This document shows positions 25,179 through 46,902 of a stretch of 56,690 nucleotides of DNA, piece by piece. How positions within the stretch are numbered: the stretch's first letter is position 1; the number at the start of each line of letters is the position of its first letter. Made by a program: the position numbers and the translations under genes. The notes under the pieces were generated by a model that was given only the letters and a program-made list of their open reading frames with translations, ran no database searches and was not told the origin of the DNA. The DNA lies in contig CAVQGX010000025.1 in NCBI GenBank assembly GCA_963712115.1, positions 1-56,690 on the forward strand, given 5' to 3'. The stretch comes from an uncultured delta proteobacterium (GTDB lineage Bacteria > Desulfobacterota > Syntrophobacteria > BM002).

Positions 25179-25193
25179 TGGCACTCTCATTGC
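25179..25193 (+). promoter_or_regulatory. Sigma54 -24/-12 promoter
   Basis: TGGCAC-TCTCA-TTGC, perfect consensus. Confidence 0.85.
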
Positions 25194-25236
25194 TCTTAAG
25201 AGTAAGCGCACGACAACAACTCCAGACGAAAAGGAG

Positions 25237-25443
25237 ATGGCCATGAACGCCACTAAAAGAATCAAGAAAGATCAGGAAAAAAAGGCTGGGGTGCAAATCT
25301 GCATCTGGTCTGAGGCCGGGGTCGTTAGTAGCCGAGGCTGCACCAGACGACTGCACTGCGAGCGCTGCCTCTTTGACCAGAACATGATGGATTTCTTTGC
25401 CTACAATTTAACTCCACTACCTGCAATGCCTCATGCTGCATGA
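25237..25443 (+). CDS. Small protein consisting of one C-x12-C-x5-C-x2-C repeat
   Basis: CIWSEAGVVSSRGCTRRLHCERCLFDQNM matches the N-terminal repeats of the downstream GcvH-like protein; AGGAG RBS. Confidence 0.7.
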   Translation: MAMNATKRIKKDQEKKAGVQICIWSEAGVVSSRGCTRRLHCERCLFDQNMMDFFAYNLTPLPAMPHAA

Positions 25444-25502
25444 AATTAGATTGGCACTGTGGGAGCGTGCATTAAGAGCACATGAAGGGAGGTGTTACTA
25501 TC

Positions 25503-26426
25503 ATGGCTGGTAAAAGCAAAAAGAGCAAAAAGGCCAAAAGAGTTCAGGGTTTCAATATCCTGGAAGATGAGTGTATCTGGATGAAAGCAGGGGTGATCAA
25601 CTTCAGGCTTTGCGACAATGCATTCGATTGTACCAACTGCCCGTTTGATACTGCCATGACCCGGGCCCTTGAAAAGACAGGACCGCTGGTGAAGCAAAAA
25701 GATCAGGAGAGTTGGCGAGACCGGATGCGGCTCCGCTATGGGGATGAGCGTGAGTGCCGTCACATGCTTTCTGGTCGGGTGCAATACAAAATCTGTACCA
25801 ACGATTTTCGTTGTGATGTGTGCGAATTTGACCAGAGCTTGGATGAAGCCGAACTCCATGAACATCTGGGCAAGCCCGCTATCCACCGGGTACTAGGTTA
25901 CCAAGTGCCGGACAACTACTACTACCATCGCGGTCATGGCTGGGCTCGTGTAGAGTATGGCGGGCGCGTAAGATTGGGCTTAGATGATTTTTCCCTGAAG
26001 CTGGTGGGACCGGTGGATGAGTATCGTCTTCCTTCCTTAGGAAAGAAGGTGGGGCAAAGCGATGTCGGCCTCAGTTTGGCGCGAGAGAGTAATGAGGCCG
26101 AGGTGCTCTCTCCCATAACTGGCACAGTTGTAGCGGTTAACCATAAAGTCTTACGCCAGCCCCAGTTGAGCAACACGAGGCCCTACACCGAGGGCTGGTT
26201 GGTTGTTGTGGAACCTGAAAGACTAAAGGGCAACCTGAAAAACCTTCTCTTTGCTAAGAAAGAAGTGGATGGTTGGATGGAGCATGAGGTCCAAAGGCTT
26301 CACAATCTGGTAATGGCAGAGCATGGACCACTGGCAGCCACAGGTGGTGATCCCATCGATGACATCTATGGTAATGCTCCAGAGGTCGGCTGGAAAACTC
26401 TAGTGCACGAATTCTTGCTGACCTAA
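25503..26426 (+). CDS. GcvH-fold protein with tandem 4-Cys N-terminal domain, no lipoyl Lys (copy 1)
   Basis: YYHRGHGWARVE..VRLGLDDF..SPITGTVVAVN..PYTEGWL; Ser at the lipoyl-Lys position; ATG 25503 after GGAGGTG. Confidence 0.85.
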   Translation: MAGKSKKSKKAKRVQGFNILEDECIWMKAGVINFRLCDNAFDCTNCPFDTAMTRALEKTGPLVKQKDQESWRDRMRLRYGDERECRHMLSGRVQYKICTNDFRCDVCEFDQSLDEAELHEHLGKPAIHRVLGYQVPDNYYYHRGHGWARVEYGGRVRLGLDDFSLKLVGPVDEYRLPSLGKKVGQSDVGLSLARESNEAEVLSPITGTVVAVNHKVLRQPQLSNTRPYTEGWLVVVEPERLKGNLKNLLFAKKEVDGWMEHEVQRLHNLVMAEHGPLAATGGDPIDDIYGNAPEVGWKTLVHEFLLT

Positions 26427-26459
26427 CCGGGTCAGAGAACAGTGTAAATCTATATCAAG

Positions 26460-26497
26460 ATTTTGGCCGAGCAACTTGCTCGGCCAAAATGTTTTAT
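26460..26497. terminator. Long perfect hairpin, probable bidirectional terminator
   Basis: ATTTTGGCCGAGCAA-C-TTGCTCGGCCAAAAT then GTTTTAT, between convergent genes. Confidence 0.7.
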
Positions 26498-26692
26498 CCC
26501 TCCGCCAAGGTCAGGGCAAGCTGGCAGCAGACAGCGGGCAGCAGGCAGAGAAAAGCTAAGTACTAGGCCGAGTTCTGGGACTCTATGGTCTATGCTTTTT
26601 CAAATCCGCAATTCGCAATCCGAAATCCCAAATTCCCCAATGCTCCATGCCCCATGCAGGTGAGTGAAGCGTTCAGACGCTTCGCTCGGCCG

Positions 26693-27325
26693 TCAATCAG
26701 GCAGCCTCTGGATCTCATACCTCCGGTAAGCTTCTTCAAGAAAGGCCTCGCAGTATTCACAGAAAAACAAAGGTAATTCATCCAAATCGCTCGGCCCCGA
26801 GGAAATCCTCATTATGCATTCGGCTTGCCTACAATGAACCAGATCAAAGGTGTGCGCCACTTCATGGAGGGCCACTTTCACCGCACGTTCGTAGAAAGTA
26901 TCCAAAGATGCCCGACTCCCTTCTTCCTTCTGCTTGAGACGATGGAGTGAGACCACAGCGGCGCGTCCTCCCATTTGCGCTTCTCCGAACACGTGGGTCA
27001 GCACCGGAATAAAGAGGTCGACGCTCACTAGGGCCAAAATTCGAGGATGGGGGCGACTGCTTTCAGCGAGTTTCTTCAGAATCAGGGCGGCGTGGTACTG
27101 CTTACGCCTATCATTGTAAGCAAATTCGGGGGTTTGACGGGCGGGGAGAATATCCACCGGCACATGGAAAATCTCCTGTAGGTTGGCGGCAACAATGTTT
27201 AAGACCGCTTCGCCTACAGCGCCCAAGCGCACAACACCAACAACTCCATGTTTTGGCAGTGAAGTGGAATTGTTTGCCCCAGGGTTATCTGTTGGTGTTC
27301 GGGCCCGGGTATTCACAGGAGACAT
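26693..27325 (-). CDS. Archaemetzincin-like (M54) zinc protease, copy 1
   Basis: RKQY, VDLFIPVLTHVFGEA, HEVAHTFDLVHC-x4-CIM...FCEYC. Confidence 0.85.
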   Translation of the reverse strand: MSPVNTRARTPTDNPGANNSTSLPKHGVVGVVRLGAVGEAVLNIVAANLQEIFHVPVDILPARQTPEFAYNDRRKQYHAALILKKLAESSRPHPRILALVSVDLFIPVLTHVFGEAQMGGRAAVVSLHRLKQKEEGSRASLDTFYERAVKVALHEVAHTFDLVHCRQAECIMRISSGPSDLDELPLFFCEYCEAFLEEAYRRYEIQRLPD

Positions 27326-27331
27326 CTCAGA

Positions 27332-28687
27332 TCAGTTGCTGGCCCGGTCTGGGCGTAATTCATATTTTTTTATTTTCTTGTGGAGGGTGACCCGATTGAT
27401 TTCTAAGGCCTGCGCAGCCTTGGTGATATTCCAGTCAAATTCCTTGAGCACTTTATGGAGGTGAGCGATTTGAGTCTTTTCAAGGGAGTAGGTTTCCGCT
27501 GCTGCCAATAGATGAGGTGCTAGGAAGGAAAACTCCTCAGGGCCAAGGCGTCTCTTTTTGCTAATGACCACCGCCCGCTCAATGGCATTTTCCAATTCAC
27601 GAACATTTCCTGGCCAGTCATACTGTCTGAAAAGGGCCATGGCTTCTTTGCTAATGGTATCGATATCCTTGTTGGTCTCACGAGAATAGCGATCAAGAAA
27701 ATGATCTGCCAATAAAGGTATGTCATCCCGCCGCTGCCGAAGTGGGGGGATATGTAAAGAGATCACATTGAGGCGGTAGAAGAAATCCTGGCGAAATTCT
27801 CCTTTTTTAATGGCCTGTTGCAGATCTCTATTGGTGGCGGCAATTGTTCGGAAATCCACCTCGATTTCCGTGGTCCCGCCTAAGCGATGAAACTCCTTGG
27901 TTTCCAGGACGCGAAGAAGATCAACCTGCATCTTGAGAGGCACTGTGCCCACCTCATCCAGAAAGAGAGTTCCATGGTGGGCCAAATCCAGTCGTCCTTT
28001 CTTTGCCCGGTGAGCGCCGGTAAAAGCGCCGCGCTCATGACCGAAAAGCTCGCTCTCCAATAAATGCTCTGGGAATGCACCACAATTGATGGGAATAAAA
28101 GGACCATTATGCCTGGCACTTTTTGCGTGGATAGCTTTTGCTACCAATTCTTTGCCCGTACCGGTCTCCCCCGTTATCAAGACTGGGGAATCACTCTCAG
28201 CCACATCCTGGATCATAATGAATAACTCCTGCATAGCCTCAGAGCGACCCACAAGGTTCTCGAAGCGAATCGCTTCAGCCATCTGCTCACGGAGAAAAAT
28301 GTTTTCGTCCAGGATCTTCTTTTGCTGAATGAGCTTTTCCGTCAGCAAAGAGAGTTGATCAGGATCAAAGGGTTTCATGAGATAGTCAATGGCTCCCCTT
28401 TTCATAGCCTGAACGGCTGTTTCCACCGAACCATAGGCAGTGATCATCACCACTAGAGTCTGAGGATAGTCCTCTTTGACCACCTCGAGAACCTCGATCC
28501 CGCTCATCACCGGCATCATAATGTCCAGAAAGAGGAGGTCGTAAGGGGTTTTCTCCAACATAGCCAGGGCAGCGCTGCCACCCTCTGCGGTGTCTACTTT
28601 ATAACCACTTTTTTTCAGCCAGCCATGGAGTGACTCGCGAATGACCAGTTCGTCATCTACCACCAGAATGCTAATTTTGTTTGCCAT
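27332..28687 (-). CDS. NtrC-family sigma54 response regulator
   Basis: Receiver domain, GETGTGKE, GAFTGA, HTH. Confidence 0.95.
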   Translation of the reverse strand: MANKISILVVDDELVIRESLHGWLKKSGYKVDTAEGGSAALAMLEKTPYDLLFLDIMMPVMSGIEVLEVVKEDYPQTLVVMITAYGSVETAVQAMKRGAIDYLMKPFDPDQLSLLTEKLIQQKKILDENIFLREQMAEAIRFENLVGRSEAMQELFIMIQDVAESDSPVLITGETGTGKELVAKAIHAKSARHNGPFIPINCGAFPEHLLESELFGHERGAFTGAHRAKKGRLDLAHHGTLFLDEVGTVPLKMQVDLLRVLETKEFHRLGGTTEIEVDFRTIAATNRDLQQAIKKGEFRQDFFYRLNVISLHIPPLRQRRDDIPLLADHFLDRYSRETNKDIDTISKEAMALFRQYDWPGNVRELENAIERAVVISKKRRLGPEEFSFLAPHLLAAAETYSLEKTQIAHLHKVLKEFDWNITKAAQALEINRVTLHKKIKKYELRPDRASN

Positions 28688-28788
28688 GGTATTCCCTTAT
28701 CTAAATGGCGAGTGAATAACGCCCACCAAGAGATCTGTGCACCATACCCGCCCAGGGATGAGAGCACCGTCTCATTTTGGGGTATTGC

Positions 28789-30396
28789 TTAGGGACCTTT
28801 ATTTACTATGGGAAATCTAATAGTAAAGGTTGATCCGGACCCCACCTTGCTGTCCACAAAAATGCTTCCCTGGTGTTCTCGAATGATTCCATAAACCACA
28901 GAGAGCCCTAGACCGACCCCTTTACCCTCCTCTTTAGTCGAGAAGAATGGCTCGAAGATTATCGAGAGGTTTTCGGCGGGAATGCCGCAGCCGGTGTCAC
29001 TAATTTTAATGTGGACCATACGTTTTTTCCTCTCGAAAGAGGTGCTGAGGGTCAATTTGCCACCATCGGGCATGGCCTCCATGGCGTTGAAGATCAGGTT
29101 CATAATACATTGCTGGATTTGATTATAATCTCCAGTTATTTCGGGGAGGTCAGGATCCAACTTTTCGATGATGGCAATGTTTTGCAGCTGCATCCGGTGT
29201 CGGCAAAGAAGAATCACTGAGCGGATGATGTCGTTGATATCGACTCGGCGACGTTCCAACTCTTTCTGGCGAGAGAAAGAGAGCAAATTGGATACAATCT
29301 GGCCGCAACGGGAGGACTCGTGAGCAATAAGTGCCAGATAACGGCGGAACTCTTCAAGCTCCTCTGCTTCAAGCTGACCCTCTTCCAAGGTGCGGAGCAT
29401 TAGTTTGGCCAGGGTATGTATCCCGGCGATGGGATTATTGATTTCGTGCACGCTACTGGCAACCAATTTGCCCAGGGCAATCATTTTGTCTTCATGTACC
29501 AATCTGGCCAAATCTTTTTTGACCTGCTTTGCTTTACGCTCAAGCCGAGACTCGAGCTCATCCGTTATGTCCCGATAAAACTCAAAAACCATGTTGACTT
29601 GGCCATAATTATTTTTCAAGGGGTAAGTGAATACCTCTAGATAGCGGGGCTTGTTTTGGCGATCCAAATGCTCGTGAATAGCGTGGGCGGAAAGGCCGGT
29701 TTTAATGGTTTCCTTCATGGGACAGTGGCAGGCTTTAGAATCGCAGGGCTGCAAGGAACGATGGCTGAGCTCATGACAGGTCCTACCAATTACTTCCTCT
29801 TTGGGCAAACCAAGCAGGCTGAGCATGGGCTCATTGGCATCGAGAATGCGAAAATCTTGTCGCAAAAGGAATAAAGGTTCTCTCATTCCAGCGAATAAAG
29901 TATTGATCATACTTTGGGAAAAATCCAGGTCACGTTCCCGAGCCTCAAACTCTCCACTAAAGTTGATCATATCTCCTATAAGTCGCGAGATGGTGAAATC
30001 CAGAACCTGGACCTGGGGTGGTTTGTTCCTGATTAGGTCATCAAGCAGTTCCTCTTTGCCTGTTAGCTCAACAATCAAGTCCAGGTTATCCAAGTGAGGG
30101 AGATCACGGTAGTCGGTAGTAGTGTAGATACCCTGCTCTTTGGCGAGACGAAAGCCCGGAGCCTCCGGATTGATGTCTACCACTGCGACGATTTTGGCTT
30201 TAAGATGTTCAAAGCGCCCCGCTGCAAACATTTCCAAAAGGGCCCTACACCTTGTTCCGCCTCCGATGATGGCGATGTTCGCCCCCTTCCTGGATTTATT
30301 TTTTTTCTTCCGGGAGTTGGATGGGGGAAGATGACTCTTGTCGGCTGACTTGGCGGATTGACGGTGTTTACCTTGACTTCTGCGCACTTTGGCCAT
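28789..30396 (-). CDS. Histidine kinase with N-terminal Rossmann-like domain and Cys-PAS
   Basis: [24 protein letters not shown]; PAS; VHEINNP, FFSTK, GVGLGL. Confidence 0.92.
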
Positions 30397-30770: not shown

Positions 30771-31034
30771 TCAGTGTTCCAGATCAAAAAGACCGATGGC
30801 TGGTTCGTACTTTGTTCTGAATTGTGGATAGATTTCTGAGAGTAACTGGTAATATGGTGAGATGAACTTGAGCTTCTTACAAACCAAGTCTAACCTGAGG
30901 TTTGGACATTTCTCGCAGGTCCAAGCTCTCCAATCGTGTTTGGCAGCATGCATCAGACAATCCCCATAAAAAGGGCATTCAATGAATCTTTGTCCTTCCC
31001 GGTTAACTGGGTGGGCTGACTCTGCTGTGTACAT
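30771..31034 (-). CDS. Small Cys-rich protein (87 aa)
   Basis: ATG 31034 with GGGAG RBS, downstream of a sigma54 promoter; CPFYGDC...CEKC. Confidence 0.7.
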   Translation of the reverse strand: MYTAESAHPVNREGQRFIECPFYGDCLMHAAKHDWRAWTCEKCPNLRLDLVCKKLKFISPYYQLLSEIYPQFRTKYEPAIGLFDLEH

Positions 31035-31098
31035 TTTTCTCCCGCAGCCAATTTTCGACTCCGAAAGGAGCCGGGTTATCATGCGATTGTTTAAAATG

Positions 31099-31113
31099 GC
31101 AACAATCGTGCCA
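31099..31113 (-). promoter_or_regulatory. Sigma54 -24/-12 promoter
   Basis: TGGCAC-GATTG-TTGC on the minus strand. Confidence 0.85.
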
Positions 31114-31255
31114 TTATGACTTTTATCCTTAAAATAATGATTTAATTGTATTTTTTGTGCCATCGCTAAATTAGATAGGAATGGAAGCAAGTAAATCTTG
31201 GGGGAGGATTTCGGTACAATAATAAGATTAATTAATTAAATCAAATAGTTAAAAA

Positions 31256-31632: not shown

Positions 31633-33006
31633 TCATCGGGTGGCAATCCCGTAGCGCTTGATCTTGCGCCAGAGGGTGGACCGGTGGACTCCCAGTTCTT
31701 TGGCTGCACCGGCGCTGCGTCCCCTATGTCGTTCCAGTGCTCGAACGATTAAATCGCGCTCGACATTATCCAGGACGGACATGTCCTCTCCTTCAGGGAG
31801 ACTGGCGGAAGCGGGAGATACTTCATGCTTGCGCGCTAGGTAAGAGGGAAGATGTCTAGATTGAATCTCGATTCCCTTCGTCAGGATCGTTGCGTGCTCG
31901 ATAATGTTTTCCAGCTCACGGACGTTGCCCGGGAAATCATAATCAAAGAGGGTTTTCAGGGCTGAGGAGGAGACCTTCTTAATCTGTTTGGACTGCTTCA
32001 GATTAATGCGCTCAATGAAGTGATCAAGCAGCAGGGGAATGTCTTCGCGCCGCTCTCGCAATGGCGGGATACTGAGCCGGATAACGTTGATGCGAAAGAA
32101 GAGGTCTTCGCGAAACTCCCTTCGATGCATCATCTCCATAAGGTCCCTGTTTGTAGCAGCGATGATTCGTACATCTACCCTCTCTGTTTTGTTGCTGCCG
32201 AGGGGTTCGTACTCTTTCTTCTCGAGAACTCGAAGCAATTTCACCTGGGTTCCCTTGCTCATGTCACCTATTTCATCCAAGAAAATAGTCCCGCCATGGG
32301 CTTGGCGAAAGCGGCCTGGTTTATCCTTTTTTGCGTCGGTGAAAGCCCCTTTCTTGTAACCAAAAAGCTCGGATTCCAGTAGGGTCTCTGGGAGGGCGGC
32401 GCAGTTTACTTTGATGAGGGGCTTATCCTGGCGGCTGCCCAAGTTATGGACCGCCGTGGCAAAGAGTTCCTTTCCTGTACCGCTTTCTCCTTCTATGAGT
32501 ACAGTGGCATCGCTCTGGGCGATGTCAGGTAATATCTGGAAAAGTTTGAGCATCGGTTTTGAGCGCCCCAGAATATCCTGGAATGAGTATTGTCTGTAGA
32601 TCTCTTTATGCAGTTCCTTGATCAGAGAGAGGTCGCGAAAGGTCTCCACCGCTCCCACCACCTTTCCTTCATGATCCTTGACAACTGCTGTGGAGATACT
32701 GATAGGAATCTCTTTGTTATCGCGGTTGAGGATGTTGACTTCCAGATTGATAATGGTCTCCGTGGTTTCAGCGGTATGTTTCAGAGGGCAGGCTTCAAAG
32801 CAGGTGTTGGCTCTGAAGATCTCGTGGCAGTATTGGCCAATGGCTTCATCCTTGGAAAACCCAGTGATTTTTTCTGCGGCTCTGTTGAAGGAGGTAATCC
32901 GCCCCTGGTGATCGACGGTAAAGACTCCGTCAGCGATACTATCTAATATGAGGCTTGTCCAGGAGGAGTCATCCTGTATGCTAGAGTAGTTTTGTTTCGG
33001 GGTCAT
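31633..33006 (-). CDS. OrpR-like PAS sigma54 activator
   Basis: PAS with [31 protein letters not shown]; divergent from the ORP cluster. Confidence 0.9.
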   Translation of the reverse strand: MTPKQNYSSIQDDSSWTSLILDSIADGVFTVDHQGRITSFNRAAEKITGFSKDEAIGQYCHEIFRANTCFEACPLKHTAETTETIINLEVNILNRDNKEIPISISTAVVKDHEGKVVGAVETFRDLSLIKELHKEIYRQYSFQDILGRSKPMLKLFQILPDIAQSDATVLIEGESGTGKELFATAVHNLGSRQDKPLIKVNCAALPETLLESELFGYKKGAFTDAKKDKPGRFRQAHGGTIFLDEIGDMSKGTQVKLLRVLEKKEYEPLGSNKTERVDVRIIAATNRDLMEMMHRREFREDLFFRINVIRLSIPPLRERREDIPLLLDHFIERINLKQSKQIKKVSSSALKTLFDYDFPGNVRELENIIEHATILTKGIEIQSRHLPSYLARKHEVSPASASLPEGEDMSVLDNVERDLIVRALERHRGRSAGAAKELGVHRSTLWRKIKRYGIATR

Positions 33007-33061
33007 TCACATTCCTTTATTTAGCAGCATTTTCGAGCAAATGTTGCGGATCAATAATCTT

Positions 33062-33135
33062 GTTGCAAAAATGCAAAAAAATATAATTTCCTGCCATGAT
33101 AAGCAATTATAAGTCTTAAGTTGCAATATTGCAAC
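33062..33135. promoter_or_regulatory. Two GTTGCA-N4-TGCAA(C) palindromes
   Basis: GTTGCAAAAATGCAAA (33062-33077) and perfect GTTGCAATATTGCAAC (33120-33135). Confidence 0.7.
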
Positions 33136-33223
33136 AACCCTCTTACTTTTCCCTTCCAAGCGATTCAAACAATCTTTGATAATTATTGTGTAAATTAAAT
33201 AGCTTAATCAATAAATGGTTATT

Positions 33224-33238
33224 TGGCACGCATGTTGC
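33224..33238 (+). promoter_or_regulatory. Sigma54 -24/-12 promoter of the ORP cluster
   Basis: TGGCAC-GCATG-TTGC. Confidence 0.88.
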
Positions 33239-33305
33239 CCCTTTGAAAGGCGGCAAGAAGTTATCGGGTTAGAGATTTTATTCCTTTCACCTCCGGGAGT
33301 CGAAG

Positions 33306-33665
33306 ATGAAAGTGGCCATTATGCTTTACGGCACGAGAGTCTCTCCCAGATTCGGCTACAGTCAGGGGGTCATGGTGGTGGAGGTCAGTGGCCACCAGGA
33401 AATCCGTAAGAAGACTCTGGAGACTGATGATTACTACCCTGAACAGATTCCCACCGTTCTCGGCAAGGAGGGGGTGGAGGTAGTGATTAGCGGCGGGATG
33501 AACAGGCATTTTCAAGATCTTTTTCGATCACAGGGTATCCAAGTGATATGGGGCATCATAGGGGAGGCAGATGATGTGCTGGCGGCTTTTATGACCGGCC
33601 GGCTGATTCCAGGAATGGGTTGCTGTCCTAGGCGCAGACGAAAACGCTTTGGCAGCAGAGGTTAG
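33306..33665 (+). CDS. NifB/NifX-family protein
   Basis: KVAI..VSPRFG..GVEVVISGGM. Confidence 0.85.
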   Translation: MKVAIMLYGTRVSPRFGYSQGVMVVEVSGHQEIRKKTLETDDYYPEQIPTVLGKEGVEVVISGGMNRHFQDLFRSQGIQVIWGIIGEADDVLAAFMTGRLIPGMGCCPRRRRKRFGSRG

Positions 33666-33732
33666 ACCCACATAAGGCACAAATCACAAACATTTCGTGG
33701 CCGATGAGGGTTAAAAAAAGGAGGAATGTATC

Positions 33733-34080
33733 ATGCCAGGATTAGACCGAACAGGGCCTGCAGGGATGGGTCCGATGACAGGATGGGGGCGCGGACTTTG
33801 TACCCCATATGGTAGGCGATTAGGCCGCCAAACTTTTGGAGGGGGGTTCGGCTGGGGCGGCCGGGGTAGAGGTTGGCGACATTGGAATTGGGGTTATGGT
33901 TCACCTCGATGGGGAAGGGGCGGGTTTTCACCCTTCCAGGAACCCGATTACGAGAACTTCTACACAAGGGATGAAGAGATGGCCATACTTAAAGAAGATG
34001 CTGCCCGCTTGAAGGAAGAACTAAACGCTGTCGAGGAGCGGCTAAGCGAGTTAGAGAGTAGGCAACGGGACGAAGGTTAG
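33733..34080 (+). CDS. DUF5320-like protein
   Basis: MPGLDRTGPAGMGPMTGWGRGLC, Gly/Arg-rich middle, C-terminal coiled coil. Confidence 0.8.
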   Translation: MPGLDRTGPAGMGPMTGWGRGLCTPYGRRLGRQTFGGGFGWGGRGRGWRHWNWGYGSPRWGRGGFSPFQEPDYENFYTRDEEMAILKEDAARLKEELNAVEERLSELESRQRDEG

Positions 34081-34104
34081 AAAACCGAGTAGAAGGGAAC
34101 AAGA

Positions 34105-35013: not shown

Positions 35014-35032
35014 AATTATGGAGACATGACCT

Positions 35033-35395: not shown

Positions 35396-35491
35396 AGGGA
35401 AGGACGGCGGAGACGCGGCGAGGTGAATCAGTCTTGTTGAGGCGTGTCTTGTTGGAACTCATGAAAACCTTGGGAAAGAAGGAGGAGAGAT

Positions 35492-36640: not shown

Positions 36641-36652
36641 GAGGTGATCAAC

Positions 36653-36919: not shown

Positions 36920-36949
36920 TAGACCAGCAGATAGGAGAGGGACACTAGG

Positions 36950-37798: not shown

Positions 37799-37837
37799 AC
37801 TGGCTAAACCGGCCAAGCGAGTGAGAAAGGTAATGTT

Positions 37838-38707: not shown

Positions 38708-38736
38708 TGTTCATCCGAGAACCCTTGCAATTCCAT

Positions 38737-38827
38737 GTCATTCTGAGGAGTTCCGAGCGCGTCGGGACGACGAAGAATCCCGAGATCCTTCGCGGAGTTC
38801 ATTTTGAGTTTGCCGAAGGAATGACAT
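38737..38827. repeat. GTCATT...AATGAC REP-like palindrome
   Basis: Nested within TAGTGTTCATCCG...CGGATGGACACTA inverted ends. Confidence 0.55.
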
Positions 38828-38869
38828 TGAATCATTTCCGGATGGACACTAACTAGGAGAGTTGGTCTC

Positions 38870-39157
38870 GTGGATTTGTTAGAGAAGATTAAAGAAAGTC
38901 TGACCCAGGTAATAGATACCGAGACTGGTATGGATGTGATGCGGATGAGACTCGTTCGGGATTTAAAGGTGGATCGGCGCGGAGATGTTGAACTTACCTT
39001 TCGCCCCTCCTCGGTCTTATGTCCGCTGGGTTTTCAACTGGGAATAAATATCAAAGAAGCAGTCCTGGATGTGCCGGGAGTCAAAAGTGTACAGGTTCAC
39101 GTGGATGGTTTTATCCACGGCGAGCAACTGAAGAAGATCCTGGAAGAGATGGACTGA
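38870..39157 (+). CDS. DUF59/SufT-like Fe-S assembly protein
   Basis: LTQVIDTETGMDV..LV, SVLCPL. Confidence 0.8.
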   Translation: MDLLEKIKESLTQVIDTETGMDVMRMRLVRDLKVDRRGDVELTFRPSSVLCPLGFQLGINIKEAVLDVPGVKSVQVHVDGFIHGEQLKKILEEMD

Positions 39158-39179
39158 AAGAAGATTAAAGGGATTTACC

Positions 39180-39425
39180 ATGCCGATTTATGAATACCAG
39201 TGCCAGGAATGTGGGGCTGTCTCAGAGAAACTGCTTGTGGGTGGAGAGAGCGTAACGGATATCTGCTGTAGTCACTGTGGCAGCCAGAGAGTGAGCAGAA
39301 TTCTGTCAGTTGCCTCTCTTTTGACCAAAAAAGTGACTAGCAGCGCAGGCCATACCTGTTGTGGCCAAGAGGAGCGATGCGATACTCCACCCTGTTCGTC
39401 TGGAGGAAGCTGCCGCCGGGGTTAA
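39180..39425 (+). CDS. FmdB-family zinc-ribbon protein
   Basis: MPIYEYQCQECG..CSHCGS, Cys-rich tail. Confidence 0.85.
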   Translation: MPIYEYQCQECGAVSEKLLVGGESVTDICCSHCGSQRVSRILSVASLLTKKVTSSAGHTCCGQEERCDTPPCSSGGSCRRG

Positions 39426-39450
39426 AGATCGGCGATAAGATAGGAGGAAA

Positions 39451-39666
39451 ATGATGCAAGGACGTGGTGAAAGCGGATCCAAACGAGGTGGCGCCGGCCG
39501 CGGTGGCGGCAGGGGCGAGGGACGTGGCCGAATGGGTGGTACTGGTCGGGGGCCTAATGGCGAATGCGTCTGTCCCAGTTGTGGCAAAAAGGCACCACAT
39601 AAACGCGGTGTTCCATGTAATGAGGTGCGCTGCCCCAAGTGTGGTACCGCCATGACCCGTGAGTAG
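39451..39666 (+). CDS. Small Gly/Arg-rich protein with C-terminal Cys cluster
   Basis: GPNGECVCPSCG..HKRGVPC..CPKCG; AGGAGG RBS. Confidence 0.8.
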   Translation: MMQGRGESGSKRGGAGRGGGRGEGRGRMGGTGRGPNGECVCPSCGKKAPHKRGVPCNEVRCPKCGTAMTRE

Positions 39667-39745
39667 TGATGCAGTCACGGCCGTTTCAGTTCTTCAGACC
39701 AGGGCAAAATGAAATGCCCCGCAGCAAGCTGCGGGATAGCAAAAC

Positions 39746-39809
39746 GTCATTCCGGAATCCGCCGGAGGCGGATATCCGGAATCTGGATTCCCGCTTTCGC
39801 GGGAATGAC
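39746..39809. repeat. GTCATTCC...GGAATGAC REP-like palindrome
   Basis: Contains CTGGATTCCCGCTTTCGCGGGAATGAC. Confidence 0.6.
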
Positions 39810-40012
39810 ATTAACGAAACATCTTCGGCAAAATAGACCCACAGCCACTAAACCGCGAAAATCGCGAAGGGCATCAAGGGTTAGGATGTGAAATATGCGA
39901 TTTGAGATGAGATTGGGTGGCAAATACCAAGCTTTTGCGATCCCACATCTCACATCCCACATCCTAGACCCTTCGTGTCCTGATACCTCACATAGAGGAG
40001 ACACGACTGAAT

Positions 40013-40459
40013 ATGAAAAATCCCATGGATGATTTTGTCGACAAGCTACAGGAGCAGATTTTTGAAGAGTCGAAAGAGGTCTACGGTGAGGAAGTCTTTA
40101 GCAGGTGGCAAAACCCAAAGTTTATGGGGAGAATGACCAATGCCTCCTGTGTCGGCCGACTAACCGGCAACTGTGGGGATAGGATGGAGATATATCTCCG
40201 AATAAAAGATGATCACATTGAAGAGGCGAGATTCTTTACAGACGGCTGCGGTTCGAGTGTGGCCTGTGGTTCAGTAGTAGCGGAGTTGGCTACGGGCAAG
40301 GATCTCGAGGAAGCCGCCCAGATTGGCGGTGACACTGTTCTCATGACCTTAGGAGGATTGCCTGAGGAAGAAAAGCACTGTGCCTTTCTTGCTGCCGAAA
40401 CGCTCATGGCTGCCATTCACCAATGGATGGTGGCGAGGATAGACACCGATAAGCGTTGA
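40013..40459 (+). CDS. NifU/IscU-like Fe-S scaffold
   Basis: GNCGD, DGCGSS, HCAFLA. Confidence 0.9.
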   Translation: MKNPMDDFVDKLQEQIFEESKEVYGEEVFSRWQNPKFMGRMTNASCVGRLTGNCGDRMEIYLRIKDDHIEEARFFTDGCGSSVACGSVVAELATGKDLEEAAQIGGDTVLMTLGGLPEEEKHCAFLAAETLMAAIHQWMVARIDTDKR

Positions 40460-40465
40460 GGTTAA

Positions 40466-41127: not shown

Positions 41128-43599
41128 GTGCGTGTCATGAGACGGAAACTGCCATTGGCTCTGATAAATCGGAGTCTGAGCGTCAAGCTCTTCCTGGCTG
41201 TGACCACGGTCATTGGCCTCACTATAGTGGCCTTTGTCCTGGTAAAGGTAGAGCATGAGAAGAAGACGCTAATCAGCCTTTTTCTGTGCCTCTCAGCCGG
41301 CCTTTATTTCTGCCTGCACTTTCTGGTGCTCAGGCCGGTGCGACGTTTGGCCGACATGGCCAAGCAGATTGACCACGGCGACTATGATGGGCGAGTCTCT
41401 GTTGGCAGTGAGGATGAATTGGGACAGTTAGCCGTGAGCCTCAATGAATTGAGCCGCAAGCTCAAAGTGCGCACCGCAGACCTGATTAAAAAGCGCGTGG
41501 ATTATCAGGCTCTGATCAGCAGCGTCAGCAACTATGTTGTGGCGATCAACCGCAATTTTGAAATAATTATGGTCAACGAGCGCTTTCAGAGTGAGTTTGG
41601 TATGCACGCGGAAGGCATCTGCTACCGGGATTGGAAGAATCGTTCCACCAAATGTGAGAATTGTCCGGTGGAGAGGAGCTTTCTGGATGGAAAAATCCAC
41701 ACCAGCGAGGAGACTGTTGTCTTTAAAGACGGCCGGCAGGGGCAAATGGAAGTGAGAACTACCCCCGTGAAAAACGAGCAGGGTGAAGTAATCTACGTGC
41801 TGGAGGCGGCCACCGACATTACCGAAAAGAGGAGACTGGAAGAAGAATTGGGTCCAGGGGCAGGTTCGCTGGAAGAGCGGGTGGCCGAGCGGTTTAAGCA
41901 TCTGCAGACATCGGAAGAGAAATATCGCACCATGTTTGAGCGCTGCCAGGATATGATTTTGTTCGCCGATCCCCAGGGAAAGATGGTGGATATCAATGCG
42001 TGCGGGGTCGACATGCTCGGGTATCGCAGCAAGGACGAACTACTCGCGGTTGGTTCCTTAAGCGAGCTTTTCGAAGATCCCGGTGAACTGGCGCGTTTTC
42101 GCCAGCAGTTGCTGGCAAATGGAATGGTGAGAGAGTTGGTGACTCGCTATAAGACCAAACAGGGTAACGCTTTAGATATTTCGCTCTCGGCGAATTTGAT
42201 CAGCGATGAGAATGGTCGGATCATCGGCTATGAGGGTATTGCACGCGATATTTCCCGACAGAAGCAGATGGTTGATGAGATGCGCCGCAACAGTGAGCAG
42301 CTTTCTGCCTTGAACCGAATTTCTCTGACGCTAAGCAGTTCACTCCAGGTGGAGGAGGTCCTGGCCAATACCATCGATCTCATTATTAGTGTGCTTCAGG
42401 TGGGAAGTGTTCGGGTCTATCTCCTGGCTGAGGGAGGAGAGCATCTTTACCTTGCTGCAGCCCGCGGCTTGTCACGTGAATTTGTCGAAAACCCACTTGT
42501 CCAGCGGAGAGCCCTGGGAGAAGGATTGCTGGGGGAGGTGGCCCAGCAGGGCGAGACGGTGATCGCGGAAGATACCAGCCAGGTGGGAACCCTCTACCGG
42601 GACGCGGTGCAAAAGGAAGGGTTACAGTCAGTGGCGTACATCCCTCTTCTCACCAAGGGGCGCACCGTGGGTGTTCTTAGTGCTTCCAGTCATTACAGTG
42701 AGAAGTTTTCCAGCCAGCAAATAGAGTTCCTCACCTCCATCGGCAACCAGATTGGCATGGCGGTGGAGAATGCCAATCTCTACGAAAAAACCAGGAAAGC
42801 ACTTGAAGATGTAAGCGCGGCCCAGGAGCAAGTGATGCGCACCGAGAAATTGGCTTCCCTGGGTAAGCTGGCGGCCACCATCGCGCACGAGATCAACAAT
42901 CCCCTTGCAGTGGTCCTCACCTACATCAGATTGATGCTCAAATTGATTGGCCGGCAGCACTTCACCCCGGAACGGCTGGAGGACATCAACCGCTACCTGG
43001 CCACCATGGAAGCAGAGACAAGTCGCTGCGGCGAGATTGTCAAGAACCTGTTGGCCTTTGCCCGCCAGTCCCAAATTGATATGAAAGCAAATTCGATCAG
43101 GAAGATTATTGACAGGACCTTGCCGCTCGTCTCACATGATCTAGAACTGCGGGGCATAAGGCTGGTGAAAAAGCTGGAAGAGCACCTACCTGACGTCCGA
43201 TGCGATTTCAAGCAGATTCAGCAGGTGCTTCTCAATGTTCTGGGTAATGCTGCCGAGGCGATGACCGAAGGGGGCACGCTGACCTTGCAGGTCTGCCAGG
43301 CGGCAAAAGGCGACTATGTGGAGGTGGCTGTCGCCGACACTGGCTGTGGTATTCCCCCTGAAAACCTGAAGGATATATTTGAACCCTTTTTCACCACCAA
43401 AGAAGAAAGGAAAGGGGTTGGTCTGGGTCTGGCCGTGGTATACGGCATTGTCGCCCGACACCATGGGACGGTAGAGGTGGAAAGCCCGCCTGTGGACGGG
43501 GAAAGCGGTAGCCGATTTCGCATCCGCTTGCCTATTGCTGTAGAGACCGGGGAGGCTGATGAGCCAGAAGGGGACAGCCAGATCTCGCACCAACTCTGA
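41128..43599 (+). CDS. Membrane histidine kinase (2TM-HAMP-PAS-PAS-GAF-HK)
   Basis: DELGQLA HAMP, PAS domains, GAF, AHEINNPL, FFTTK, GVGLGL. Confidence 0.93.
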   Translation: MRVMRRKLPLALINRSLSVKLFLAVTTVIGLTIVAFVLVKVEHEKKTLISLFLCLSAGLYFCLHFLVLRPVRRLADMAKQIDHGDYDGRVSVGSEDELGQLAVSLNELSRKLKVRTADLIKKRVDYQALISSVSNYVVAINRNFEIIMVNERFQSEFGMHAEGICYRDWKNRSTKCENCPVERSFLDGKIHTSEETVVFKDGRQGQMEVRTTPVKNEQGEVIYVLEAATDITEKRRLEEELGPGAGSLEERVAERFKHLQTSEEKYRTMFERCQDMILFADPQGKMVDINACGVDMLGYRSKDELLAVGSLSELFEDPGELARFRQQLLANGMVRELVTRYKTKQGNALDISLSANLISDENGRIIGYEGIARDISRQKQMVDEMRRNSEQLSALNRISLTLSSSLQVEEVLANTIDLIISVLQVGSVRVYLLAEGGEHLYLAAARGLSREFVENPLVQRRALGEGLLGEVAQQGETVIAEDTSQVGTLYRDAVQKEGLQSVAYIPLLTKGRTVGVLSASSHYSEKFSSQQIEFLTSIGNQIGMAVENANLYEKTRKALEDVSAAQEQVMRTEKLASLGKLAATIAHEINNPLAVVLTYIRLMLKLIGRQHFTPERLEDINRYLATMEAETSRCGEIVKNLLAFARQSQIDMKANSIRKIIDRTLPLVSHDLELRGIRLVKKLEEHLPDVRCDFKQIQQVLLNVLGNAAEAMTEGGTLTLQVCQAAKGDYVEVAVADTGCGIPPENLKDIFEPFFTTKEERKGVGLGLAVVYGIVARHHGTVEVESPPVDGESGSRFRIRLPIAVETGEADEPEGDSQISHQL

Positions 43600-43688
43600 T
43601 ATGACCACTCGAGTAGTGGGTAGATCTTCTATGCAGGTGTCCGGCATTAGAGATAAAACTGATAACCAACGGGATCGGAGGTTGCTGG

Positions 43689-45035
43689 ATGAGCAAAAAG
43701 ACCCGCATTCTTATAGTTGATGACGAGACTGCCATGAGAGAGTGCCTCCGGGACTGGCTTCTGGAGGACGGATATGAAGTGGGGCTGGCGGCCAGCGGTC
43801 CCGAGGCTATTGCCATGGCCAAGGATTACTCCTGGCATGTGGTGCTCTTGGATCTCAAAATGCCCGGCATGGACGGACTCCAGGCTCTGGCGGAATTGCG
43901 CCAGGTGGCTCCCGACGCCGAGGTGGTGATGATGACCGCCTATGCCACAGTGGATACTGCGGTGCAGGCCATGAAGAGTGGGGCTTTCGACTACCTGGTA
44001 AAACCCTTTGATCCGGATGAGGTGGAACTGCTGATCAAAAAGATTGTTTCCCACCATGAACTGGTGCTGGAAAACATTCTGCTTCGGCGGAGGCTGGAGG
44101 AGCGGGAAGAGTTTGATGAGATTATTGGGCAAAGTCAACCCATGCTGAATCTCTTTGAGACGCTGTCCCGGGTGGCGCCAGCGGATTCCACGGTGTTGAT
44201 CACAGGGGAGAGCGGCACCGGCAAGGAACTGGTGGCCCGGGCCATTCACGGAAACAGCCCTCGCTGTTATTATCCATTTATTACCGTGAGTTGTGGCGCT
44301 CTGCCCGACTCACTTTTAGAAAGCGAATTGTTTGGTCATGAGAAGGGGGCCTTTACCGGCGCCGACCAAACCCGCAAGGGCCGAATCGAGATGGCCAATG
44401 GCGGCACTCTCTTTCTGGACGAGATAGGTGAGATAAGCGCTAAGACCCAAGTGGATCTGTTGCGGGTGCTCCAGGAGAAGAAGATCCAGCGTCTTGGGAG
44501 CGAAGGGGAGATTCCGGTTGATGTTCGGATCCTCGCTGCCACCAATCGGGATCTGCTAAAGGCCATAGGTGAAAAACGCTTCAGGGAAGACCTATACTAC
44601 CGGCTCAACGTGATCTCCATCCATCTGCCCCCTCTGCGCGAGCGGCAAGAGGACATCCCAATCCTGGCCGAGAGTTTCATCCGCAAGTTCTGCCTGGAGA
44701 TGAACAAGGACCTGGTTAAGATCGGCCCGGAGGCCATGCGATTACTGACAAACTACCACTGGCCCGGTAATGTTCGGGAGCTGGAAAATATCATCGAGAG
44801 AGCCCTGGTTATCGGTACAGGCAAGGCCATCGTACCCGGTGATCTTCCATTCGGGCGTGGGCAGATGCAGGAAGCTGAACTGCCTGAATCGATCCAGGAG
44901 ATGGAGCGTCTGCATATCAAGCGCATTTTGAATAATACAGCGTGGAACATCAGCCAGAGCGCCCGTCGTTTGGGGATCGACCGTCAGACACTTTATAACA
45001 AAATGGAGAAATACGGCCTCAGCCGTGCTGAATAG
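43689..45035 (+). CDS. NtrC-family sigma54 response regulator
   Basis: Receiver, [17 protein letters not shown]. Confidence 0.95.
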   Translation: MSKKTRILIVDDETAMRECLRDWLLEDGYEVGLAASGPEAIAMAKDYSWHVVLLDLKMPGMDGLQALAELRQVAPDAEVVMMTAYATVDTAVQAMKSGAFDYLVKPFDPDEVELLIKKIVSHHELVLENILLRRRLEEREEFDEIIGQSQPMLNLFETLSRVAPADSTVLITGESGTGKELVARAIHGNSPRCYYPFITVSCGALPDSLLESELFGHEKGAFTGADQTRKGRIEMANGGTLFLDEIGEISAKTQVDLLRVLQEKKIQRLGSEGEIPVDVRILAATNRDLLKAIGEKRFREDLYYRLNVISIHLPPLRERQEDIPILAESFIRKFCLEMNKDLVKIGPEAMRLLTNYHWPGNVRELENIIERALVIGTGKAIVPGDLPFGRGQMQEAELPESIQEMERLHIKRILNNTAWNISQSARRLGIDRQTLYNKMEKYGLSRAE

Positions 45036-45047
45036 CAGAAATAGGGA

Positions 45048-45611
45048 ATGAGCATTCGCACGGATCACCCACCAGGCGTGATCATCCACCCACTTGGCCC
45101 GGTACCTGCGGGAATCCTCCAGCATCTGGCCATCAGTGTGCAGGATCGCTGTCAGATATCTTGCCTGGTGGGTGAACCCATGGAAAATCCGGGTTACGCT
45201 CAGGATCCTGAACGGGCACAGTACAGCTGCAAACGCATTTTGCAGCGATTGCACCGTTGCTGCTCGCCGCATTCCTGGCGGGTCCTGGCTGTGACCGAGA
45301 TAGATCTCTTTGTCCCCATCCTCAAATACGTTTTTGGCGCCGCCCAGATGGAAGGGAGATGTGCAGTCATCTCGCTCCATCGACTCCGCCCGCAGTTTTA
45401 CGGCGGCGAGGAAGATGAGCAACTCCTTCTGGAGCGGTTGGTAAAAACGGCTCTTCACGAACTAGGTCACTCCCTGGGACTTACCCACTGTCGGCGGCGC
45501 ACCTGTGTGATGTACTCCTCCACCCGCATTGATGATACTGATGCCAAAACGGCTGATTTCTGTACCACCTGCCGGGAACTTTTCCGCTGGCGTCTGCAAG
45601 GAGCAGTCTAG
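45048..45611 (+). CDS. Archaemetzincin-like (M54) zinc protease, copy 2
   Basis: RAQY, IDLFVPILKYVFGAA, HELGHSLGLTHC-x4-CVM...FCTTC. Confidence 0.88.
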   Translation: MSIRTDHPPGVIIHPLGPVPAGILQHLAISVQDRCQISCLVGEPMENPGYAQDPERAQYSCKRILQRLHRCCSPHSWRVLAVTEIDLFVPILKYVFGAAQMEGRCAVISLHRLRPQFYGGEEDEQLLLERLVKTALHELGHSLGLTHCRRRTCVMYSSTRIDDTDAKTADFCTTCRELFRWRLQGAV

Positions 45612-45836
45612 CCCACCAACTTCCAATTATGCCTATATTTTCGACAATGCGCCTATTTTCTAGACAGTAACAAAATTATATAATTATATCAGCATAATAA
45701 AAATTGCTTATGGCGAGAATCCTCGGAAGGAGTGTCGAATAATCCACCAATCCAAACCAGGGAGCCGAGAGAATTGTTGGTGGCATAAAGTGCAAAGTTG
45801 CAATATTATTAATCGGTTACTGAAGTAATCCATTGT

Positions 45837-45851
45837 TGGCATACTGTTTGC
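45837..45851 (+). promoter_or_regulatory. Sigma54 -24/-12 promoter
   Basis: TGGCAT-ACTGT-TTGC, 50 bp upstream of the GcvH-like gene. Confidence 0.85.
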
Positions 45852-45901
45852 TCTAAAGGGATAGCGAAATGAGATAATAATCCATACAGGAGGAGGATAT
45901 C

Positions 45902-46834
45902 ATGGCCGAAGCTAGCGAAAAGAAGTCTTTTAAGGTGGTGCCGCCAGGGAAGAAGAAGTGTATCTGGATGGAGGCCGGTGTGGTCTCTTACAAACTTTGC
46001 GACCATAACTTTGATTGTCCGACCTGCTCGTACGACCAGGGCATGCAGCTCAAGGTAGCCCGGCAGCGGGCGTCTCTAGCCGCTTTTCCGGTGGCCGAGC
46101 CCCTTCCCGAGGAATTTACCCCGACCTGGGTGGAGAAGGAAATGCAGTTGGCGGCCCACAGGCGCAGGTGCCGCTATATGCTCACCGGGGAAGTGGATCG
46201 AAAAATCTGTGCAAATGCTTATGAATGTGGCAACTGTGCTTTCGATCAGATGATGCAGGATCGGCTGCAGCCTTCAGAGCTTCCCGCCCAGGCCCACGCC
46301 TCTGTTGGTGGTTTCGAGCTTGCCGAGGGATTTTACTATCATGACGGCCACACATGGGCTCGACCGGAGTATGGTGGTCGTGTCCGTGTCGGTTTGGATG
46401 ACTTTGCCCGCAAACTTCTAGGGCGGCTGCGTCAGCTCAGTGTTCCCGAGGTGGGGCAGGCAGTGAAACAGGGTGAGGCCGCCATGGAGCTGCAGCGCAA
46501 CACCTCTCGGGTTAGAGCTCTGGCGCCGGTGGACGGCATTGTCACGCACGTCAACTACGAGGTATTGAACAATCCAAGTTTGATCCAGGAATCTCCCTAC
46601 GAGGCGGGCTGGCTTTTCATCATTGAGCCCACCCGACTGCGAAAAAATCTGAAGAACCTCTACTTCGGCGAGGAGGCCCAGAGCTATGTCGAGGAGGAAC
46701 GGGAACGACTTCTTGCACGGGTCCATCAGGATGACCGAATCGCAGCTGACGGTGGTCCGTCCGTGGATGACGTTACAGGGAATCTCAAGGATGAGGATTG
46801 GTCAAAATTGGTTAAGGAGTTTCTCAGAAGCTGA
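45902..46834 (+). CDS. GcvH-fold protein with tandem 4-Cys N-terminal domain, no lipoyl Lys (copy 2)
   Basis: YYHDGHTWARPE..VRVGLDDF..APVDGIVTHVN..PYEAGWL; Thr at the lipoyl-Lys position. Confidence 0.85.
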   Translation: MAEASEKKSFKVVPPGKKKCIWMEAGVVSYKLCDHNFDCPTCSYDQGMQLKVARQRASLAAFPVAEPLPEEFTPTWVEKEMQLAAHRRRCRYMLTGEVDRKICANAYECGNCAFDQMMQDRLQPSELPAQAHASVGGFELAEGFYYHDGHTWARPEYGGRVRVGLDDFARKLLGRLRQLSVPEVGQAVKQGEAAMELQRNTSRVRALAPVDGIVTHVNYEVLNNPSLIQESPYEAGWLFIIEPTRLRKNLKNLYFGEEAQSYVEEERERLLARVHQDDRIAADGGPSVDDVTGNLKDEDWSKLVKEFLRS

Positions 46835-46868
46835 CACCGAGGACTTCGAGTCTCAAGGTTTTGCTAAA

Positions 46869-46902
46869 CTCTCCCGGCCCCGCAACCGGGAGAGTTTTTT
46901 TT
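46869..46902 (+). terminator. Rho-independent terminator
   Basis: CTCTCCCGG-loop-CCGGGAGAG followed by T8. Confidence 0.85.

Follow-up and report, generated by a model that had tools for sequence, protein, structure and literature searches.

What does an archaemetzincin do when its gene stands in a two-component system next to the gene of a protein with the fold of the glycine cleavage H protein? This question is raised by a stretch of 56,690 nucleotides (nt), here called the window, from contig CAVQGX010000025.1 (GCA_963712115.1) of an uncultured delta proteobacterium (Desulfobacterota; Syntrophobacteria; BM002). The window contains two cassettes, at 25179-30396 and 41128-46902, each encoding a PAS histidine kinase (HK), an NtrC-type sigma-54 activator as the response regulator (RR), an archaemetzincin of family M54 and an H-like protein. 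Archaemetzincins occur in archaea, bacteria and vertebrates, and the available part of PMC3427221 states that their natural substrates are unknown. We found that the four genes form a conserved unit. The chances appear about even that each cassette is a self-contained signalling-plus-processing unit in which the protease matures the H-fold protein.

Two cassettes in the window and a third in the same genome

Genes of both cassettes were called from a listing of open reading frames (ORFs) together with Pfam and NCBIfam scans. The scans agree on all eight genes at the positions that a first-pass annotation of this DNA had given them (Table 1). In copy 1, the kinase, regulator and M54 genes lie on the minus strand and converge on a plus-strand H-like gene. 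In copy 2, all four genes lie on the plus strand, with a 290-nt spacer from the M54 gene to the H-like gene. The two copies are well diverged, as that annotation had noticed, with pairwise identities of 39% for the H-like proteins, 36% for M54 and 50% for the regulators. They also differ in their kinase inputs: a single Cys-rich PAS in copy 1, for which the Pfam scan found neither HAMP nor GAF, and HAMP-PAS-PAS-GAF in copy 2. Kinase 2 has, besides the HAMP domain, a hydrophobic N-terminus, and kinase 1 is without HAMP or any membrane-type domain. Both regulators match PF00072, PF00158 (8e-72 and 5e-71) and PF02954 in Pfam, and GAFTGA is present in both translations. The PAS domains of both kinases, and also of an activator encoded at 31633-33006, contain a Cys-rich insert of the C-x(7-10)-C-x(2-5)-C-...-C-P type, which could be a redox or metal sensing site.

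A third HK-RR-M54-H cassette, all on one strand, is found on another contig of the same assembly (C20 of genome G000; L006 4627-10323), with an H-like protein that shares about 42% identity with the window copies. All three PF07998 matches and all three long H-like genes of this genome sit in such cassettes. The parts list of the first-pass annotation was right about the four genes; it missed this third copy, as well as the Cys-rich N-domain, the tail motif and the small ORF described below.

The four genes form a conserved unit

Scanning contigs from one genome per species with a pattern yielded 409 confirmed relatives of the H-like gene. We examined the best 80 of the 409 loci (58-93% identity to the copy 2 H-like protein), in which gene content was determined by BLAST of the window proteins against the locus ORFs. 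The nearest public relatives are Syntrophobacteria/Desulfobacterota metagenome bins. The order HK-RR-M54-H on one strand is intact in 63 of the 80 loci; 15 of the other 17 are interrupted by contig ends, leaving 2 true exceptions. The M54 gene is directly upstream of the H-like gene on the same strand in 75/80 loci, and 4 of the remaining 5 have less than 450 nt of upstream sequence. A regulator gene is upstream of M54 in 71/75 (3 of the remaining 4 are at contig ends), and a kinase gene is upstream of the regulator in 63/71 (the other 8 are at contig ends). This neighbourhood check bears out the proposed co-occurrence of the four genes in other genomes.

We then started from M54. PF07998 matches were present in 108 of 301 genomes sampled across the phylum, and the best match from one genome per family gave 39 loci for profile scanning. 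Sixteen of these M54 genes are solitary and 23 are accompanied by an NtrC-type regulator, usually with a kinase too. Among the 23 linked loci, 18 have at least one H-like gene, four lie within 1.4 kilobases (kb) of a contig end and one has no H-like gene. In a maximum-likelihood tree, the 16 solitary M54 proteins group together with support (98/92) and are separate from all the linked ones. M54 is present in 75 of the 83 genomes with a strong H-like match versus 33 of the 218 others; a strong match means E <= 1e-30, a cut set after the list was seen, and the related genomes compared here are non-independent.

The H-like proteins beside M54 in other families can be grouped into class 1 with two Cys4 motifs (the window type), class 2 with one and class 3 with none, the last having a Lys one residue off the lipoyl position. 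Genes of classes 2 and 3 are frequently found in tandem, and are accompanied by Fer4_11 and an NrfD membrane protein in 4/4 loci tested. Such clusters of Fer4_11 (PsrB/DsrO-like) and NrfD are found in L092, L096, L111 and L119, and also, by ORF size only, in L106, L108 and L128; they hold two or three tandem H-like genes of the shorter classes. Another arrangement is seen in L083 (1826-10936), where the HK-RR-M54 set occurs twice in tandem, once as the copy-1 type and once as the copy-2 type, with just one H-like gene after them.

An H fold without the lipoyl lysine

The H-like protein has three parts: a double Cys motif in residues 1-125, an H fold at about 140-260 and then a 60-residue C-terminal extension. 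The H fold of copy 2 matches PF01597 at 1.3e-22 and, in a Foldseek comparison, the Thermus H protein 1onl_A with a template modelling score (target) of 0.80 and an E value of 7.6e-10. The earlier description of these proteins as GcvH-like holds for the fold and not for the size, which is 310-314 amino acids (aa) with the double Cys4 motif and the extension.

The lipoyl tetrad e-s-v-k of PDB 1onl aligns with q-r-n-t in copy 2, placing a Thr at the Lys position. In our alignment, none of the 45 family members has a Lys in this column; the residues are Gly (36), Asn (5), Ser (2), Thr (1) and Asp (1). As the first-pass annotation had suspected and judging from these sequences, the H-like proteins are not lipoyl carriers, since they are expected to be unable to carry lipoate with no Lys at the lipoyl position. 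Scores against GcvH equivalogs also fall below cut-off (TIGR00527, 65.5 and 63.5 vs 115.85; another, 82.2 vs 117), and neither GcvP (PF02347) nor GcvT (PF01571) was found in the window's own assembly, which is 94.4% complete. Relatives are nevertheless labelled 'glycine cleavage system protein H' by automated annotation. A separate 158-aa H protein with a lipoyl Lys is encoded on contig C26 of this genome (L004 1417-2654), beside a LipB-like gene and an OmpR-type regulator gene.

The N-domain contains two copies of C-x-(W/Y/H)-M-x2-G-x7-C-x5-C-x2-C, and this double Cys4 domain has no Pfam family. An ESM Atlas search with it returned only unnamed clusters at 0.79-0.80, under the lead threshold. 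A profile of the domain found 1,002 cluster representatives at E <= 0.001, ten of which, chosen for unusual layouts, were scanned. The domain is at the C-terminus of receiver proteins in four of the ten (P0163, P0168, P0189 and P0154) and in the N-terminal part of a TPR histidine kinase in one (P0225); four others are longer H-like proteins and one is a Fer2-Fer4-H fusion (P0254). The Cys-rich domain associates with both signalling and iron-sulfur proteins, and its presence in receiver proteins and a histidine kinase marks it as a signalling-associated module. The Cys4 motifs may bind metal, and the H-like protein probably has a redox, metal or Fe-S related function, or one in signalling. Contigs from RNA libraries cover the H-like ORF at 90-99% likeness in 4/4 runs from four studies, while some parts of the stretch are uncovered in some runs. 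Such contigs reveal neither the strand nor the start or level of a transcript and could derive from carried-over DNA; as a hint that the gene is expressed in relatives, they are weak.

A dedicated sigma-54 promoter with upstream enhancers

We then investigated the spacers between the M54 and H-like genes. A sigma-54 -24/-12 element that fits at least 9 of the 11 consensus positions is found in 75/75 spacers and precedes the start codon by a median of 64 nt, as compared to 1/75 on the opposite strand and 10/1,500 in shuffled sequences. Across the window, sites with at most one mismatch number 6 against 2.12 expected, a count reached in 0/100 shuffles; those with at most two mismatches (34 vs 30.6) are at chance level. 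Upstream of this element, the palindrome TGYCGA-N5-TCGRCA is present with at most one mismatch in 60/75 spacers and in 0/75 shuffled ones. These enhancer-like sites cluster at -110/-120 (47 sites) and at -200 to -220 (40 sites) from the -24 element. Over the 75 loci we counted 91 sites in 26 kb of spacer versus 22 in 1,045 kb of flanks, 5 of the 22 abutting a spacer; this corresponds to 3.48 versus 0.021 per kb, about a 165-fold difference. The concentration of sites in the M54-H spacer marks the H-like gene as the regulator's single consistent local target. The architecture supports the earlier proposal of a dedicated sigma-54 promoter from which the regulator induces the H-like gene, presumably by binding to the palindromes. 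One perfect palindrome, in L071 at 11137, is downstream of the H-like gene and before an HdrA/GltD-like gene; none of the other 75 loci scanned shows this.

In the window's own genome, the palindrome scan found no perfect site and 66 one-mismatch sites. Of these, only the copy 2 site at 45630 stands at an expected place, and it is also the only one within the window; no regulon emerged from the scan. The copy 2 half-site is at the same position as the proximal enhancer site of relatives. For copy 1 no clear palindrome was found; a two-genome alignment with a congeneric genome shows conserved upstream blocks. A promoter element does precede H-like gene 1, as had been claimed, except that a 68-aa ORF with one Cys4 motif comes first, and the element is predicted from its position to drive this small ORF ahead of the H-like gene. 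A 67-aa counterpart is in the same place in a same-genus genome (G147; L135 6341-6544), and in other families none turned up among the 39 M54-centred loci.

The first-pass annotation had further supposed that the circuit tunes neighbouring Hdr operons. This idea does not fit the confinement of the enhancers to the M54-H spacer, nor the finding of only one palindrome in the window. The Hdr-like genes of the window, at 13.7-19.7 kb and from 54.4 kb, are not adjacent to the cassettes, and the genes downstream of the H-like gene vary over the 80 loci, with 18 having an HdrA/GltD-like fusion (about 1,350 aa), 14 a CCG protein and 9 MTHFR.

The archaemetzincin and the tail motif

Both M54 copies keep the motif HExxHxxGxxHC-x4-C-x-M-x16-C-x2-C. 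The zinc/catalytic part reads HELGHSLGLTH in copy 2 and HEVAHTFDLVH in copy 1, which has Asp in the place of Gly but retains both the ligands and the Glu; the catalytic motifs are intact in both. In the 41 sequences of our M54 alignment (A3), no variation is seen at H, E, H, H, at the four Cys or at the Met, and the HExxH Glu is kept in 41/41 sequences of the wider tree set; the Met is replaced by Leu in three distant relatives. PF07998 scores are 89.9 and 61.1 bits (cut-off 24.4), NF033823 scores exceed their cut-off in both copies (Table 1), and the A3 profile matches the archaeal AmzA structure 2x7m at 5.7e-39. According to the available part of PMC3427221, the S1' pocket of archaemetzincins is small and closed, no natural substrate of theirs is known, and metzincin substrates bind to an edge strand.

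A candidate for such a substrate is the tail of the H-like protein, which bears the motif A281-A282-D283-G284-G285. A282, G284 and G285 are present in 45/45 family members and D283 in 44/45. The GG is kept in 31/31 distant H-like ORFs beside M54, preceded by D, T, S, N or A. A structure prediction of M54 together with the H-like protein gave a complex score of 0.69, and the best of three controls gave 0.00. The score passes the tool's mark, which was reached by 58/80 solved complexes and 2/110 mismatched pairs; these counts are approximate, as own alignments were used. Model runs agree in at least 95% of contacts, with a pLDDT (predicted local distance difference test) of at least 76 for the partner. 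In the predicted interface, residues 278-288 of the H-like protein contact M54 residues 89-103, H137, E138, H141, H147 and 157-160. The segment is modelled antiparallel to the edge strand, from M54 101 with H-like 279/280 to M54 92 with 287, and A281 adjoins E138 and H141. The model thus places the tail motif substrate-like in the active site, in the mode described for metzincins, and supports binding. A sequence search of the PDB returned archaemetzincin single chains only, so we know of no solved complex that the model could have memorised. The earlier suggestion that the protease acts on the H-like protein therein gains in-silico support.

A proposed maturation circuit and its alternatives

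We propose the following circuit. The kinase, with its Cys-rich PAS inputs, would phosphorylate the NtrC-type activator. The activator would bind two or three palindromes of the form TGYCGA-N5-TCGRCA, located about 100-220 bp upstream of the sigma-54 promoter, which would turn on its single local target, the H-like gene. The product would combine the duplicated Cys4 module, the H fold without the lipoyl lysine and the C-terminal extension. The archaemetzincin would then take the (A)A-D-G-G segment of the tail into its active-site cleft and presumably cut there, removing the last 25-30 residues. We commit to maturation, in which removal of the tail activates or releases the H-fold protein, over mere turnover. 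A wider claim is more tentative, and we hold it less probable than its negation: the (A)ADGG tail would be the first natural archaemetzincin substrate to be identified, and the cassette a signalling or redox module of anaerobic Desulfobacterota, gated by proteolysis and not described before, in which a two-component system makes a Cys4/H-fold precursor and the protease arms it, with the shorter paralogues of sister lineages, bearing the same tail, working with the NrfD/4Fe-4S membrane pair.

Several observations weigh against the maturation circuit. One locus has the H-like gene alone, with M54 truly missing (L020), another has M54-H without HK and RR (L071), and a third has HK-RR-M54 without an H-like gene despite room for it (L123). 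An M54 match is missing in 8 of the 83 genomes with a strong H-like match. One genome that is 99% complete (G088) has HK-RR beside two GG-bearing H-like genes and no M54 was found in it, so the tail motif can persist without M54. Across the H-like classes just the GG and mostly the Asp are conserved; A281, modelled at the zinc, varies in classes 2 and 3, which makes the exact scissile bond uncertain. The complex score is the model's own confidence. Copy 1 M54 has Asp at a consensus Gly, and catalysis is not a given because archaeal archaemetzincins were inactive on the standard substrates tested (PMC3427221, available part). The Cys region of the copy 2 H-like protein has an AlphaFold pLDDT of 50-65, leaving its fold uncertain. 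Outside the copy-2 lineage, clear sigma-54 elements precede only about 8 of 30 H-like ORFs, whose starts are uncertain.

The alternative that survives best, and that we find doubtful, is a feedback or turnover circuit in which the H-like protein acts back on the kinase or regulator and is degraded by the archaemetzincin as a reset. The Cys-rich N-domain does stand in the output position of receiver proteins, in four of the ten architectures scanned, and in kinase P0225, the H-like gene is the only consistent local target, and the predicted binding of the tail by the protease would suit degradation too. A specific cut is nonetheless favoured over general degradation because the model shows one docking segment with an invariant motif. 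Moreover, the H-like genes adjoin an NrfD/Fer4_11 membrane pair in other families, which suggests a role in redox metabolism.

It is improbable, in our estimate, that the protease has another substrate (the kinase, the regulator or an unlinked protein), with the H-like gene a mere regulon target and the modelled contact a false positive. This would agree with the position of M54 in line with HK and RR rather than with the H-like gene, which is on the opposite strand in copy 1, with the G088 and L123 loci, and with the two mismatched pairs that reached the mark in calibration. It agrees poorly with the co-occurrence across genomes (75/83 vs 33/218) and with H-like genes in 18 of the 19 assessable linked M54 loci; in the model, the predicted interface involves the invariant motif and the catalytic residues, and the three controls scored 0.00.

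We also give a low probability to M54 acting without proteolysis, as a CarG-like zinc-bound regulatory partner of the H-like tail or of the activator. The bacterial M54 homologue CarG functions in transcription and is devoid of protease activity, and archaeal AmzA was inactive in vitro, as the available part of PMC3427221 reports. A pseudo-substrate tail would yield the same complex model, and NF033824, the family of non-proteolytic archaemetzincin-like proteins, scores both copies at 86-111 bits (86.1 and 111). These scores are, however, far under the cut-off of 250, and the proteolytic family NF033823 is above its own of 145. CarG has Gln in place of the catalytic Glu, whereas Glu is kept in 41/41 sequences here, with all zinc ligands.

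Finally, that the H-like proteins are ordinary lipoylated carriers of glycine cleavage or of an sHdr-LbpA type sulfur pathway is hardly credible: the H fold, the automated label and the Hdr-like genes within the window speak for it, and the empty lipoyl column, the equivalog scores under cut-off, the failure to find GcvP or GcvT in the assembly and the separate Lys-bearing H protein beside a LipB-like gene on another contig speak against it.

Features and genomic surroundings

Table 1. Positions of the cassette features in the window
Feature	Position	Strand	Remarks
Sigma-54 -24/-12 element, copy 1	25179..25194	+	TGGCAC-N5-TTGCT, 0 mismatches; kept in same-genus genome
68-aa ORF, one Cys4 motif (C-x-W-x2-A-G-...-C-x5-C-x2-C)	25237..25443	+	Between promoter and H-like gene 1
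H-like protein 1, 314 aa	25482..26426	+	PF01597 at 9.9e-19; possible alternative start near 25503
H-like protein 1, Cys4 motifs	25572-25640 and 25755-25823	+	Sequence
H-like protein 1, tail motif AATGG	26334-26348	+	Sequence
Archaemetzincin 1, 210 aa	26693..27325	-	PF07998; NF033823 146 bits vs cut-off 145
Archaemetzincin 1 motif, HEVAHTFDLVHC-x4-C-x-M-x16-C-x2-C	26750-26866	-	Asp replaces consensus Gly
NtrC-type response regulator 1	27332..28687	-	REC, sigma-54 AAA+ with GAFTGA, HTH_8
Histidine kinase 1, 535 aa	28789..30396	-	N-terminal domain without Pfam family, one Cys-rich PAS, HisKA, HATPase_c
Histidine kinase 2, 823 aa	41128..43599	+	HAMP, PAS, PAS, GAF, HisKA, HATPase_c
NtrC-type response regulator 2	43689..45035	+	REC, sigma-54 AAA+ with GAFTGA, HTH_8
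Archaemetzincin 2, 187 aa	45048..45611	+	NF033823 164.5 bits vs cut-off 145
Archaemetzincin 2 motif, HELGHSLGLTHC-x4-C-x-M-x16-C-x2-C	45456-45572	+	Sequence
Enhancer-like palindrome TGCCTA-N5-TCGACA	45630..45646		1 mismatch to TGYCGA-N5-TCGRCA; about -207 from -24 element
Second enhancer-like site	45733..45749		Left half TGTCGA alone fits; about -104 from -24 element
Sigma-54 -24/-12 element, copy 2	45837..45852	+	TGGCAT-N5-TTGCT, 1 mismatch
H-like protein 2, 310 aa	45902..46834	+	PF01597; H fold from 46334; Thr at lipoyl position
H-like protein 2, Cys4 motifs	45959-46027 and 46169-46237	+	Sequence
H-like protein 2, tail motif AADGG	46742-46756	+	Sequence

The region between the cassettes is not an Hdr region. 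We found, at 31633-40459, genes for Nitro_FeMo-Co proteins (three confirmed by Pfam), DUF5320, an NUBPL/Mrp-type NTPase, two MinD-type 4Fe-4S ATPases and NifU_N, with a sigma-54 element at 33224 and the divergent PAS sigma-54 activator gene at 31633-33006. From its gene content, this cluster looks like an operon for the handling of Fe-S or metal cofactors under its own activator. No lipoate ligase gene was seen next to any cassette examined.

Beside this cluster, a small Cys-rich ORF without a Pfam family is located at 30771-31190 on the minus strand. A sigma-54 element with one mismatch (31098-31113) lies inside its longest frame, and the true start is probably downstream of this element. Near the end of the window (51512-56690), an NtrC-type regulator gene (51512-52882) is followed by a sigma-54-like element at 53052, MTHFR (53518-54393) and a GltD/HdrA-like fusion gene that begins at 54429 and runs off the window. 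MTHFR and the fusion likewise recur downstream of H-like genes elsewhere (9 and 18 of the 80 loci).

Significance and literature

A co-encoded candidate substrate with an invariant docking motif makes the archaemetzincin substrate question testable with two recombinant proteins. The H-like proteins also represent a large family misannotated as 'glycine cleavage system protein H', with 409 relatives in the pattern scan and 524 clusters in a protein search with the H-like protein. A new Cys4 domain, found again in receiver proteins and a kinase, is also defined here. For sigma-54 control in uncultured bacteria of the sulfate-reducer type, the work provides a clean set that comprises regulator, enhancer, promoter and target.

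Like the first-pass annotation, we found no description of the module in the literature searched by archaemetzincin, sigma-54, H-protein and NrfD topics, supplements lying outside its coverage. No paper pairing archaemetzincin with sigma-54 was found, and among the matches listed, no archaemetzincin title or abstract opening deals with a link to bacterial two-component systems. The main texts of PMC12316311, PMC3333781 and PMC11887813 contain no 'glycine cleavage', 'GcvH' or 'M54', and their supplementary tables may list such genes. PMC5701242 covers canonical glycine cleavage genes only, and in PMC13325395 archaemetzincin appears merely as a structural neighbour of DUF6775.

Comparison with known systems

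The window proteins share family and motif, including the Cys4 site, with known archaemetzincins (MEROPS M54; AmzA of Methanopyrus and Archaeoglobus; human AMZ1/2). They differ in being bacterial, encoded in a two-component operon and paired with a candidate substrate; for the archaeal proteins, the available part of PMC3427221 describes neither a natural substrate nor a gene context. The Met is separated from the last CxxC by 16 residues here versus 17 in the published consensus. CarG of Myxococcus xanthus is likewise a bacterial M54-fold protein tied to transcriptional control, from a related lineage, but it is without the catalytic Glu that the window family keeps (41/41, with NF033824 far under cut-off).

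The glycine cleavage H protein and LbpA of the sHdr sulfur oxidisers have the H fold in common with the H-like proteins. The latter, in contrast, lack the lipoyl lysine, possess an extra double Cys4 domain and the AADGG tail, and are about 310 rather than about 130 aa long. They also appear to be under sigma-54 two-component control, and no P or T proteins were found in the genome.

Hydrogenase large-subunit endopeptidases carry out a dedicated C-terminal processing of metalloprotein precursors. By analogy, the prediction for the small co-encoded protease of the cassette is that it takes a short C-terminal extension off a target that is rich in Cys and probably binds metal, although protease family and target are unrelated to those of the hydrogenase system.

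With NtrC-type sigma-54 systems, the cassettes share the REC/AAA+ (GAFTGA)/HTH_8 regulator, the HisKA kinase, palindromes at about -100 to -220 and a -24/-12 promoter. They differ in having one H-like gene as the only consistent local target and a protease gene as a fixed third member of the operon. The NtrC-type circuit is known in kind; what is new is its fixed cargo of an archaemetzincin together with a tail-bearing, lipoyl-less H-fold protein.

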